From assembly GCF_056712565.1 (NCBI RefSeq), contig NZ_CM160072.1: a DNA stretch of 64,000 bases; one strand, written 5' to 3'. Position 1 is the first letter of the stretch; each line of letters starts with the position of its first letter. Of this stretch, positions 18,001-21,000 are shown piece by piece. Made by a program: the position numbers.

Positions 18001-21000
18001 TGAGCGGAGCGATTTGCTCGCGAGTGTTCATTTCGCGGGTTTGTAAATGGACATCGGGATAATCACGGCGAAACAGCGATAACGTATCGGACACCGCCCG
18101 AATAAAAGGAGCGGACGAAGTAAAACCAATGCGCAACTCCCCCGCTTCGCCCTGATGCAGCCTTTCAGCGCGAGCGGCAGCATCATCCACCATAGACAGG
18201 ATTTGCCGACTATCTACAAGAAACTGTTTTCCTGCTTCCGTCAGCAATACACTGCGATTGGTCCGTGCCAGCAGTCGGGCACCAATTTGTTGCTCCAGCG
18301 CCTGAATCTGCTGACTTAGCGGTGGTTGCGAAATATTCAGGCGGGCAGCGGCACGCCCGAAATGCAGCTCTTCTGCAACAGCGACAAAGTAACGCAGATG
18401 ACGAAGTTCAAGATTCATATTTAAAACATCTTATTTGAGATTATTAATATATTAGACAGAACAATTCGATTTTCCTAATCTATTCATAAGCCTGATCCAC
18501 AGGCATATTTAGCAAGGATTTCAAGTGAGCCGTACTACAACTGTTGATGGCGCTCCGGCAAGCGACACTGACAAGCAAAGCATTTCTCAGTCAAATCAAT
18601 TTATTAAACGCGGTACGCCGCAATTTATGCGCGTCACCCTGGCGCTTTTCTCTGCCGGACTGGCAACTTTCGCACTTCTCTATTGTGTGCAACCTATCCT
18701 TCCGGTGCTTTCACAAGAGTTTGGCTTAACGCCCGCGAACAGTAGTATTTCACTGTCCATTTCAACGGCGATGTTGGCTATCGGTTTGCTGTTTACTGGC
18801 CCGCTATCCGATGCCATTGGTCGCAAACCAGTGATGGTCACGGCGCTACTGTTGGCCTCCATTTGTACGTTACTTTCGACAATGATGACCAGCTGGCACG
18901 GCATTTTGATTATGCGCGCCTTGATTGGGCTTTCGTTAAGTGGCGTGGCAGCCGTTGGCATGACTTATCTTAGCGAGGAAATCCACCCCAGTTTCGTGGC
19001 CTTTTCAATGGGGTTGTATATCAGCGGCAACTCAATTGGCGGCATGAGCGGACGCTTAATTAGCGGTGTCTTCACGGACTTTTTTAACTGGCGAATTGCT
19101 CTGGCGGCAATCGGTTGTTTCGCGTTGGCCTCGGCGTTGATGTTCTGGAAAATCCTCCCTGAATCACGCCATTTTCGCCCGACTTCGCTGCGCCCTAAGA
19201 CGTTATTCATCAACTTTCGTCTGCACTGGCGTGACCGGGGATTACCGTTATTGTTCGCAGAAGGCTTTTTGCTGATGGGGTCGTTCGTCACGCTGTTTAA
19301 TTACATCGGCTATAGGTTGATGCTTTCCCCCTGGCATGTCAGTCAGGCCGTGGTTGGCTTATTATCGCTGGCTTATTTGACCGGTACATGGAGCTCACCC
19401 AAAGCCGGAACCATGACCACCCGCTATGGACGCGGTCCGGTGATGTTGTTTTCGACGGGGGTTATGCTGTTTGGTTTACTGATGACCTTATTCAGCTCGC
19501 TGTGGCTGATCTTTGCCGGAATGTTACTCTTCTCAGCCGGATTCTTCGCAGCCCACTCCGTTGCCAGCAGCTGGATCGGCCCCCGCGCAAAACGCGCTAA
19601 AGGCCAGGCCTCCTCGCTGTATCTGTTCAGTTACTATCTGGGGTCGAGTATTGCCGGGACGCTGGGTGGTGTTTTCTGGCATAACTATGGCTGGAACGGC
19701 GTCGGCGCATTTATTGCTCTGATGCTGGTCATTGCTCTGCTGGTCGGGACGCGTTTGCATCATCGTCTGCACGCCTGAAAAAATAAGTCCGGACTGAGGT
19801 AAATACCCGTCCGGACTTATTGCCTGCTCAAACCAACGTTAATAGCCATCCTAAAATAGACGAAGCGCCAGCCAATTCCCGCAGCGCATCTAGCGTCATC
19901 AGGATTATAAGTACCCAAATAAACGGATTCATTTTGCTGTGTGTCATTTATTACTGATGCGCAGTTATTCTACCGCTTTGTAAGTAGTAAAATAGTTAAC
20001 ACGATCAAGACTACTATTATTGGTAGCTAAATTTTCCTTAAGTCACAATACGTTATTATCAACGCTGTAATTTATTCAGCGTTTGTACATATCGTTACAC
20101 GCTGAAACCAACCACTCACGGAAGTCTGCCATTCCCAGGGATATAGTTATTTCAACGGCCCCGCAGTGGGGTTAAATGAAAAAACAAATTGAGGGTATGA
20201 CAATGAAAAAAGTATTAGCTCTGGTTGTTGCCGCTGCTATGGGTCTGTCTTCTGCTGCCTTTGCTGCAGAGACTGCGACCACACCTGCTCCGACTGCGAC
20301 GACCACCAAAGCAGCGCCTGCGAAAACCACACATCATAAAAAACAGCATAAAGCAGCACCTGCCCAGAAAGCGCAGGCGGCTAAAAAGCATCATAAAAAT
20401 GCCAAAGCTGAACAGAAAGCTCCTGAACAAAAAGCGCAGGCAGCGAAGAAACACGCCAAGAAACACAGCCATCAGCAACCGGCAAAACCTGCTGCACAAC
20501 CCGCAGCGTAAGTTTTCAACAGTAATGCTGGCGCGCCCCCTCGCGCCTGAAAATTACGGTGCTAAGCGGGTAACGTTTAGCACCGCCTTTAGCGGAGGGT
20601 AGTATGGTGGGCCGTTATCGCTTTGAGTTCATTCTTATCATCCTTATTTTATGCGCACTGATTGCCGCCCGTTTTTATCTTTCCTGATCGTAGTTATCTG
20701 ATTTTACTCCCACTTTCATCCCGTCCCGTCTATAGTATTTATGAGGGTTTGCTTTTAATAATCATAATTACCCACCAGAGTGTGATATGCGTACAACCAT
20801 TGCTGTAGTGTTGGGTGCAATTAGTTTGACGTCTGCTTTTGTGTTTGCAGATAAACCAGACGTTGCCAAATCGGCAAACGATGAGGTCAGCACCCTGTTT
20901 TTTGGTCATGATGATCGTGTGCCAGTGAATGACACGACCCAATCACCGTGGGATGCGGTTGGCCAACTGGAAACGGCCAGCGGCAATTTATGTACGGCGA

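Follow-up and report, generated by a model that had tools for sequence, protein, structure and literature searches.

The asr locus of Escherichia coli raises two questions: whether the RstA-like box that a first-pass annotation of this DNA had pointed out at 20084-20099 is the site through which asr is activated, and whether the repetitive coding sequence downstream of the box makes the gene prone to length variation. The span originally singled out (19779-20511) extends from the stop codon of ynfM to that of asr. The window, which is the whole 64-kb stretch of DNA analysed, corresponds to the E. coli ynfM–asr–samT (ydgU) locus, here with 100% identity to strain ATCC 11775, and asr is annotated in 5,422 of 5,426 complete E. 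coli genomes. The synteny ynfM-asr-ydgU-ydgD is the same as in K-12. The region is very probably the acid-inducible asr-samT operon of E. coli together with its promoter and the intergenic space common to ynfM. Its features are as follows.

19782-19821, no strand assigned: perfect inverted repeat of 13 bp (AATAAGTCCGGAC / GTCCGGACTTATT), 100% complementary
19828-19932, minus strand: small hydrophobic open reading frame (ORF) of about 34 aa (MNPFIWVLIILMTLDALRELAGASSILGWLLTLV), KPN_01571 family, NCBIfam NF033695
20084-20099, plus strand: RstA box, TGTACATATCGTTACA, an exact and unique consensus match at the published position
20100-20124, plus strand: promoter-proximal continuation of the conserved block, CGCTGAAACCAACCACTCACGGAAG, at -54 to -30, delimited from ten protein-retrieved promoters and of putative function
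20115-20132, plus strand: Pho-box-like CTCACGGAAGTCTGCCAT, described in the literature as a 'PhoB box' and placed there at -39 to -22
20142-20147, plus strand: -10 hexamer TATAGT, with T20142 and A20143 invariant in 124 promoters
20157-20173, plus strand: stem-loop GGCCCC-GCAGU-GGGGUU, from folding, -9.0 kcal/mol
20203-20511, plus strand: asr coding sequence for a 102-aa precursor (RefSeq annotation; Pfam PF06392; NCBIfam NF033636)
20355-20453, plus strand: two degenerate 21-codon repeat units, with DNA copies at 20355-20390 and 20418-20453
20604-20687, plus strand: samT (formerly ydgU), a 27-aa membrane peptide (annotation; NCBIfam NF052476)

The core of the box, TACATATCGTTACA (20086-20099), agrees with the RstA-box consensus TACATNTNGTTACA in 12 of 12 specified positions, and no other exact match to this consensus was found on either strand of the 64-kb window. 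Such a match is expected by chance 0.01 times per window, as only one in 100 dinucleotide-preserving shuffles contained one. When one mismatch was allowed the same single site was recovered, with 0.24 expected. The looser pattern TACA-N6-TACA had four matches in the window against 1.09 expected, so that only the full consensus can be regarded as informative. The two half-sites are TACA direct repeats at 20086-20089 and 20096-20099, 10 bp apart from start to start, the spacing expected if an OmpR/PhoB-type regulator binds as a head-to-tail dimer. Both the consensus and a footprint at asr reportedly stem from Ogasawara et al. 2007. The consensus TACATNTNGTTACA was obtained for RstA by genomic SELEX and is accompanied by a tandem-dimer binding model (PMC4117788), and crystal-structure work favours two RstA DNA-binding domains on tandem half-sites. 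In gel shifts with strain LF82, RstA binding to the asr promoter was abolished by deletion or scrambling of the box. In K-12, RstA binds the asr promoter in the DRaCALA assay, and purified RstA suffices for activation of asr transcription in vitro.

The box is situated 117 nt 5′ of the annotated asr start codon (20203). From a match of the sequence to the positions that PMC9026648 gives for two boxes (-77/-55 and -39/-22) and for A (-17 and -13), we infer that transcription starts at A20154. Counted from there, the box occupies -70 to -55 and falls within the asr promoter's RstA box, quoted in the same paper as -77 to -55; the published box thus coincides with the site at 20084-20099 and does not lie elsewhere in the promoter. 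A recognisable -35 hexamer was not found in the asr promoter, and a sigma-70 consensus scan of 19700-20800 returned no full promoter. Such missing matches are expected for an activator-dependent promoter, and the scan is therefore of no help in locating the start.

A stem-loop begins 3 nt from the presumed start of the asr mRNA. It was recovered at the same place in all nine lineage variants folded, with modest individual z-scores (-0.3 to -2.8), and its stem sequences differ in E. fergusonii, Yersinia, Brenneria and Chimaeribacter. RNAalifold, applied to 58 distinct 5′-UTR segments, gave a consensus of 3 bp only, since the alignment mis-registers the divergent stems, and the separate folds of the variants told more. 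This conserved 5′-terminal stem-loop may add to the stability of the mRNA.

For the conservation of the promoter, 124 distinct asr promoter sequences were compared, which represent more than 25 genera across the Enterobacterales. In the half-sites, the positions left free by the search pattern (G20085-A20089 and G20094-T20095) are invariant in all 124, and T20096 is retained in 122 of them. The search pattern itself fixed most positions of the proximal block in the 120-locus set; ten promoters retrieved via the protein, and not by a DNA pattern, therefore served as an independent test of that block. The RstA site is present in all ten of these loci. Between 30 and 36 of the 41 positions at 20084-20124 are kept in them, compared with just 4-17 of the 41 nt upstream of 20084 and 3-7 of the 17 positions in the spacer between 20124 and the -10 element. 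The edges of conservation are sharp, at 20083 on one side and past 20124 on the other. The comparison narrows the conserved RstA core at asr to TGTACA-WWN[G/C]-GTTACA, and the two spacer T positions of the SELEX consensus vary among genera. Asr promoters are said to have been compared among enterobacteria by Seputiene et al. 2004 (Res Microbiol), and the conservation may already be described there. Within the species, K-12 has the promoter segment 20040-20202 with 100% identity, and 5,239 of the 5,422 E. coli genomes have it with 99% or more; the coding sequence attains the latter level in only 1,472.

These observations fit into an established scheme of regulation. The RstB-RstA two-component system is active at low pH, its genes being switched on by PhoQ-PhoP, and phosphorylated RstA activates asr, which is induced about 1,000-fold at pH 4.4. 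The gene samT is co-transcribed with asr, and SamT exerts negative feedback on RstB (PMC13425233). A transcript starting near the inferred position 20154 would present the small stem-loop first, then Asr and then the 27-aa SamT, which, as reported, would damp RstB signalling. A hairpin of 12 bp is also present in the asr–samT spacer, at 20557-20585.

The conserved block continues for about 25 bp beyond the published box, to about -31, and reaches 41 bp in total, and this extension is not explained by a single RstA dimer. One may speculate that 20084-20124 constitutes one composite operator, in which the proximal half GAWACCA-N4-CTCACGGAA (about -50 to -31) is occupied by a second, low-affinity RstA dimer or by another co-factor. 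The proximal half contains two more half-site-like elements, WACC (20106) and TCAC (20116), so that four TACA-like elements follow each other in exact 10-bp phase from 20086 through 20096 and 20106 to 20116, and the third of them is TACC in most genera. A second RstA dimer on WACC and TCAC would reach the -35 region and RNA polymerase, in the manner of tandem PhoB and OmpR boxes; alternatively, a separate partner factor could recognise ACCA-N4-CTCACGGAA. The lack of a usable -35 hexamer in the asr promoter is in line with such an arrangement, as is the equal conservation of the proximal half and the RstA box in the ten protein-retrieved promoters. Furthermore, the omrB promoter is described in the literature as needing a conserved box beside its RstA site for RstA control. 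However, the published box region ends at -55, the fourth element, TCAC, is a poor match to TACA, and the conservation of CTCACGGAA is equally compatible with contacts made by RNA polymerase. Also, the proximal positions were mostly set by the search pattern in 120 loci and are tested by the ten protein-retrieved loci only. A composite operator is for these reasons a tentative proposal, with the odds against it. If true, it could account for the steep and acid-specific response of asr. The 41-bp conserved footprint and the fixed half-site bases are relevant to the engineering of the asr promoter.

Another regulator has been connected with the same stretch of the promoter. The original asr promoter paper is reportedly that of Suziedeliene 1999, and the proposal of that year is said to be that PhoB acts on asr via a Pho-box-like sequence. 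Dual control by RstBA and PhoRB, the latter through a PhoB box put at -39 to -22, is still stated in reviews and engineering papers. In its strongest form this would make PhoB, and not RstA, the main activator of asr through 20115-20132, which overlaps the -35 region, with the upstream box being secondary. The Pho box, formed by two CTGTCAT repeats 11 bp apart over the -35 region, and the RstA box are alike in being tandem direct repeats for a regulator of the OmpR/PhoB family. When CTCACGG-AAGT-CTGCCAT is read against CTGTCAT, the second heptamer (CTGCCAT, 20126-20132) agrees in six of seven positions and the first, CTCACGG, in about three of seven, and E. albertii carries a perfect CTGTCAT at the same place as the second. 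The first repeat at asr is thus poor when compared to a Pho box, and the second is not conserved between genera: CTGCCAT is confined to close Escherichia relatives and is not kept in E. fergusonii, Salmonella, Klebsiella, Serratia or Yersinia, and no position of 20125-20132 exceeds 0.82 bit of conservation across the 124 promoters. Genome-wide ChIP-seq and RNA-seq in K-12 revealed neither PhoB binding nor PhoB regulation at asr, and the authors of that work considered asr an unlikely PhoB target. The in vitro activation of asr with purified RstA and the requirement of RstB-RstA for acid induction of a Pasr reporter, both from the literature, point in the same direction. That the asr 'Pho box' is a genuine PhoB site is unlikely, a point on which the comparative data and ChIP-seq agree; PhoB as the main regulator of asr was rejected as improbable, on the negative ChIP-seq and RNA-seq results and the missing conservation of the CTGCCAT half. 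The PhoB alternative is poorly supported, and RstA is retained as the activator acting through 20084-20099.

The asr coding sequence begins at 20203, preceded by the Shine-Dalgarno sequence GAGGG at 20191-20195, and not with the longer 111-aa ORF from 20176. Its product scores 46.8 bits against Pfam PF06392 (cut-off 24.9) and 99.1 bits against the NCBIfam equivalog NF033636 (cut-off 50); in a protein-cluster collection, no entry was found for the 102-aa or the 111-aa form. The DNA of the gene is 97.7% identical to that of K-12, allelic substitutions being the sole difference, and the protein differs from K-12 Asr (b1597, 'periplasmic chaperone Asr') by two residues (ETATTP versus ETTTTP and KNAKAE versus KNTKAE), as read against variants of the K-12 type. 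The N-terminus, encoded by 20203-20265, is signal-peptide-like when judged by eye, and is followed by a basic, repetitive region rich in K, A, Q and H with two QKAQAAKKH motifs. This agrees with the description of Asr as an exported, disordered protein rich in lysine, alanine, glutamine and histidine, which has been reported to be a periplasmic chaperone and an 'aggregase'.

The repetitive, low-complexity character first noticed in the coding sequence is reflected in the NCBI family name 'acid resistance repetitive basic protein Asr', and the internal near-repeats are real. The clearest pair is 36 nt long (20355-20390 and 20418-20453), 78% identical and spaced by 63 nt. A second pair, of 30 nt (20313-20342 and 20370-20399), shows 70% identity, and there are several shorter ones. 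The string described in the first-pass annotation, aaagcgcaggc[g/a]gc[t/g]aa[a/g]aa, occurs at 20368 and 20431. The repeats of asr are so degenerate that Tandem Repeats Finder detected only a weak 12-nt array at 20441-20471. No exact direct repeat in the coding sequence is longer than 11 nt, the 21st lowest value among 112 species.

The suggestion that such repeats make asr prone to length variation holds between species but was not borne out in the E. coli genomes sampled. Across species, Asr varies from 69 to 177 aa with 0-6 QKAQAA motifs, length and motif number being strongly correlated (r = 0.92), and in some genera, as in species of Klebsiella, Enterobacter, Pantoea and Erwinia, the gene contains exact repeats 40-113 nt long, at periods of 54-60 nt. 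The repeats are remnants of a tandem unit of about 18-21 codons, the gain and loss of which has altered the length of Asr between genera. Within E. coli, length was surveyed in 118 intact genomes, drawn evenly spaced from the 5,422 as two independent samples of 59, and bounded in the remainder by identity bands. All 59 genomes of each sample had asr at the length of the query and in one ungapped piece, so that the strain comparison disclosed no indels. All 5,422 genomes cover at least 80% of the coding sequence and 11 of them fall below 95% identity; at most 11 E. coli genomes thus lie in an identity band that is able to mask an indel.

A hypervariable asr within E. coli, driven by slippage or recombination between the repeats, is in light of these data highly improbable. 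The direct near-repeats, the 2.5-fold range in length across species that follows motif copy number, the long exact repeats of some genera and public 'E. coli Asr' entries of 94-141 aa might all be taken to favour it, but the disrupted alleles seen were two IS insertions only, and the database proteins of 94-141 aa are frameshifts at A5/A6 runs into another frame and not changes in the repeats. Such 'length variants' of E. coli Asr in databases are to be taken as frameshifts or sequencing errors; in a word-indexed protein search, the matches were for the most part fragments and products of frameshifts, and the main cluster of E. coli was not among them. Asr resembles VNTR and contingency genes in that the repeat unit occurs in 0-6 copies between species and forms long exact repeats in some genera, but E. 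coli asr differs from them, since its copies are 78% identical, share at most 11 nt of exact sequence and show no change in length between the strains surveyed. VNTR behaviour within the species was rejected on the constant length in the genomes sampled and the lack of long exact repeats. The copies in E. coli appear too diverged for easy recombination or slippage, which would explain why the length of the gene is fixed.

The weakest of the alternatives, that the RstA box is a chance match without function, might draw on the ease with which short degenerate motifs arise (20 of 100 shuffled windows held a match at one mismatch), but is effectively ruled out by the very low expectation for an exact match, by a site that is invariant across the Enterobacterales directly downstream of sequence at random identity, and by the published binding experiments. 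The RstA box of asr is already known and well studied, and the first-pass annotation was correct but ordinary in calling it: gene, sequence and position are those of the box published for the asr promoter in E. coli, with nothing material different. Acid shock has in asr one of its textbook genes, and for RstA the asr box is the reference site; the present finding adds little to this. Synthetic biology employs the promoter for sensing pH, and infection studies use it to report on the acidification of vacuoles.

In the remainder of the intergenic space, the inverted repeat at 19782-19821 is flanked by two stop codons, that of ynfM (19778) and that of a small ORF convergent with it. Its RNA folds at -23.5 kcal/mol (z = -6.3), and none of 200 shuffles was as stable. 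The repeat is preceded by an A-run and followed by a T-rich run, as read from the sequence, and on these grounds likely acts as a two-way transcription terminator. A search of 19700-20800 against Rfam at a permissive threshold gave zero matches. The small ORF at 19828-19932 is convergent with ynfM and divergent from asr, and lies outside the asr system. It matches NCBIfam NF033695 with E = 1.2e-17 and 63.3 bits (cut-off 35), and is annotated by RefSeq in many E. coli genomes while absent from the annotation of K-12 MG1655. The peptide is kept beside ynfM in E. fergusonii, K. variicola and S. arizonae.

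The finding comprises asr of Escherichia coli together with the intergenic region between ynfM and asr. Over its 733 bases it is 100% identical to E. coli ATCC 11775, and among 5,426 complete genomes of E. coli it was found in 5,422. In the RefSeq annotation, ydgD, mdtI and mdtJ follow ydgU/samT. The features of the locus are:

ynfM, ends at 19778 (RefSeq annotation)
19782-19821, perfect 13-bp inverted repeat between two convergent stop codons
19828-19932, minus strand, small hydrophobic ORF of about 34 aa (NCBIfam NF033695, KPN_01571 family, E = 1.2e-17)
20203-20511, asr, 102 aa (RefSeq annotation)
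20338-20343 (A6), 20383-20387 (A5) and others, A-runs in asr that are frameshift sites
20604-20687, ydgU/samT, 27 aa (RefSeq annotation)

The Asr protein matched Pfam PF06392 with 46.8 bits (curated cut-off 24.9) and NCBIfam NF033636, 'acid resistance repetitive basic protein Asr', with 99.1 bits (cut-off 50). A 111-aa ORF called mechanically from 20176 does not correspond to the annotated gene. Both the Shine-Dalgarno sequence GAGGG at 20191-20195 and the signal-peptide-like start MKKVLAL… are consistent with the annotated start codon at 20203, and the in-frame upstream ATG is absent from most asr orthologues.

The first-pass annotation had described an RstA box within the promoter of asr, and this was confirmed. 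The sequence TGTACATATCGTTACA is located at 20084-20099, its core agrees with the RstA-box consensus TACATNTNGTTACA at 12 of 12 specified positions, and it is the single exact match on either strand of the window (0.01 expected). Allowing one mismatch added no site in the window (0.24 expected). The looser TACA-N6-TACA has four matches there against 1.09 expected and is uninformative by itself; none of the three other sites matched the fuller consensus. Both the consensus and a model of two DNA-binding domains on the tandem TACA half-sites have been published (PMC4117788). PMC9026648 numbers the RstA box −77 to −55, gives −39 to −22 for a 'PhoB box' and puts A residues at −17 and −13; all of these positions fit the sequence when transcription starts at A20154. 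Because this start derives from that numbering, we regard it as inferred. The promoter features and the other TACA-N6-TACA matches are:

20077-20099, RstA box region (PMC9026648 numbering)
20115-20132, PhoB box (PMC9026648 numbering)
20137 and 20141, A residues at −17 and −13
20142-20147, −10 hexamer TATAGT
6403-6416, plus strand, TACA-N6-TACA
25156-25169, minus strand, TACA-N6-TACA
60980-60993, plus strand, TACA-N6-TACA

Reading the box as a target of RstA is the established view, and the essentials of the finding are already published. RstA retards the asr promoter in gel shifts, an effect lost when the box is deleted or scrambled (PMC11135836), purified RstA binds the promoter and activates transcription by the sigma-70 holoenzyme in vitro (PMC13425233), and acid induction of Pasr is reported in the literature to require RstB-RstA.

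The box lies 116-119 nt upstream of the start codon in all six asr loci retrieved via the protein (E. fergusonii, S. enterica subsp. arizonae, Y. enterocolitica, K. variicola, Serratia and an Escherichia-like assembly). A scan of one genome per species with ACANGCNGANACCANNNNCTCACGGAA, a pattern that constrains neither the first half-site nor the GTT of the second, yielded at least 120 loci; apart from a few assemblies that lack a classification or are probably mislabelled, all are labelled Enterobacterales. An asr-type ORF was readable just downstream in most listed loci and complete in 113 of the 127 promoter matches listed. Among the matches listed, G20085-A20089 and G20094-T20095 are invariant in all 124 distinct promoters and T20096 is kept in 122, the T positions of the SELEX-consensus spacer vary (T/A at 20090, mostly C at 20092), and conservation drops to near zero upstream of 20083. 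TACT was found as second half-site in Chania and one metagenomic contig. For K. pneumoniae asr a TACA/TACT arrangement and no classic RstA box have been reported (PMC4117788); in the Klebsiella asr promoters read here (K. pneumoniae ATCC 13883 and K. variicola), however, both half-sites are TACA, in the canonical form TGTACATTCGGTTACA (TACA-N6-TACA). Of 5,422 E. coli genomes, 5,239 have the promoter segment 20040-20202 at 99% identity or more, and only 1,472 have the asr coding sequence at 99% or more.

Conservation extends beyond the box to 20124 as CGCYGAWACCA-N4-CTCACGGAA. Since the scan pattern fixed most positions of this proximal block, ten protein-retrieved loci (the first six with Pectobacterium, Chania, Y. 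ruckeri and a metagenomic contig) provide the fair test. In these promoters 30-36 of the 41 positions at 20084-20124 are kept, 4-17 of the 41 immediately upstream and 3-7 of the 17 in the spacer leading to the −10 element. Four TACA-like elements stand in exact 10-bp phase (TACA 20086, TACA 20096, WACC 20106 and TCAC 20116), and the proximal block may possibly represent a weaker second site for an RstA dimer, or a contact of polymerase or a co-factor. A second dimer site is disfavoured by the poor match of TCAC and by the published box ending at −55. The extended block is a minor lead; a 2004 study reportedly compared asr promoters among enterobacteria and may already describe its conservation. 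Control by PhoB through a Pho-box-like sequence that overlaps the proximal end of the block is the weaker reading, because the better Pho-box half, CTGCCAT (20126-20132), is not conserved beyond close Escherichia relatives among the promoters listed, and a study of PhoB across the genome detected no binding or regulation at asr (PMC10294691).

The RstA box is flanked in E. coli by the short inverted repeats AACGCTG (20061-20067), CAGCGTT (20077-20083) and ACGCTG (20099-20104), which may be chance or lineage-specific since other genera show no conservation upstream of 20083. The window also holds the genes of the cognate regulator pair, rstA (30985-31704) and rstB (31708-33009), on the plus strand; they lie downstream of asr at a distance of about 10.5 kb. 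A response-regulator/histidine-kinase pair lies immediately upstream of asr in Pectobacterium, and a histidine kinase two genes upstream in Y. enterocolitica, which suggests that the rstAB-asr linkage is old.

Internal near-repeats had also been proposed for asr, and they are real but degenerate. The pair 20355-20390 and 20418-20453 (36 nt each, 78% identity, 63 nt apart) encodes two 12-residue units; weaker pairs are present, and exact direct repeats reach 11 nt at most. Among the matches listed, Asr ranges over 112 species from 69 to 177 aa (median 115) with 0-6 QKAQAA motifs, and length and motif number correlate (r = 0.92). In some Erwinia, Pantoea and Enterobacter, asr carries exact repeats that are 40-113 nt long and have a period of 54-60 nt. 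The correlation and these long repeats show that gain and loss of repeats has shaped the family.

The anticipated length variation is thus evident between species, but not among the E. coli strains sampled, where every intact hit had the query length. Samples of 60 genomes, drawn twice at even spacing from the 5,422 (queries of 309 bp and 376 bp), revealed no variation in repeat number; each gave 59 one-piece matches of exact query length and one interrupted gene. IS insertions were the sole disrupted alleles in these samples: ISCro1 (IS66 family) in the 3′ end of asr in ZYB39, and IS1 at ~20076/20077 in 26561, ~7 bp upstream of the 16-mer box, with box and promoter intact. Across all 5,422 genomes coverage of the coding sequence is at least 80%, and identity is below 95% in only 11. 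Public 'E. coli Asr' proteins of 94-141 aa stem from frameshifts at the A6 run (20338) or at A5 runs (20383 and others), entering an alternative frame open until 20602; these products are rare and may be homopolymer sequencing errors or true alleles. An 84-aa S. arizonae Asr is similarly frameshifted relative to the 82-aa protein of the type strain (91 aa from the upstream in-frame ATG).

A stem-loop (GGCCCC-GCAGU-GGGGUU, 20157-20173, −9.0 kcal/mol) lies 3 nt from the inferred start. Hairpins with other stem sequences occupy the same position in E. fergusonii (GGCCUCA…UGAGGUU), Yersinia, Brenneria, Chimaeribacter, Erwinia and Pantoea. Folded singly, the sequences have modest z-scores (−0.3 to −2.8); automatic consensus folding of the 5′ segments gave 3 pairs only, and an Rfam search returned no match. 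In the literature, asr mRNA is induced ~1,000-fold at pH 4.4 and its coding region accounts for ~2% of ribosome footprints; a 5′-terminal hairpin slowing decay would suit such an mRNA. The stem-loop is a minor lead. The asr-samT spacer (20533-20603) contains a 12-bp hairpin at 20557-20585 lacking a clear U-tract, and in its minimum-energy fold (−41.5 kcal/mol, z = −2.0) an upstream CCCCCUC pairs with GGAGGG (20594-20599), the Shine-Dalgarno sequence of samT. Such a fold could affect readthrough or samT translation.

On the ynfM side, the KPN_01571-family ORF is convergent with ynfM and divergent from asr. Many RefSeq annotations of E. coli genomes include it, but that of K-12 MG1655 does not; conservation of the peptide beside ynfM extends to E. 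fergusonii, K. variicola and S. arizonae. The inverted repeat at 19782-19821 folds at −23.5 kcal/mol (z = −6.3), is flanked by an A-run and, on the opposite side, by a T-rich run, and is probably a bidirectional terminator.
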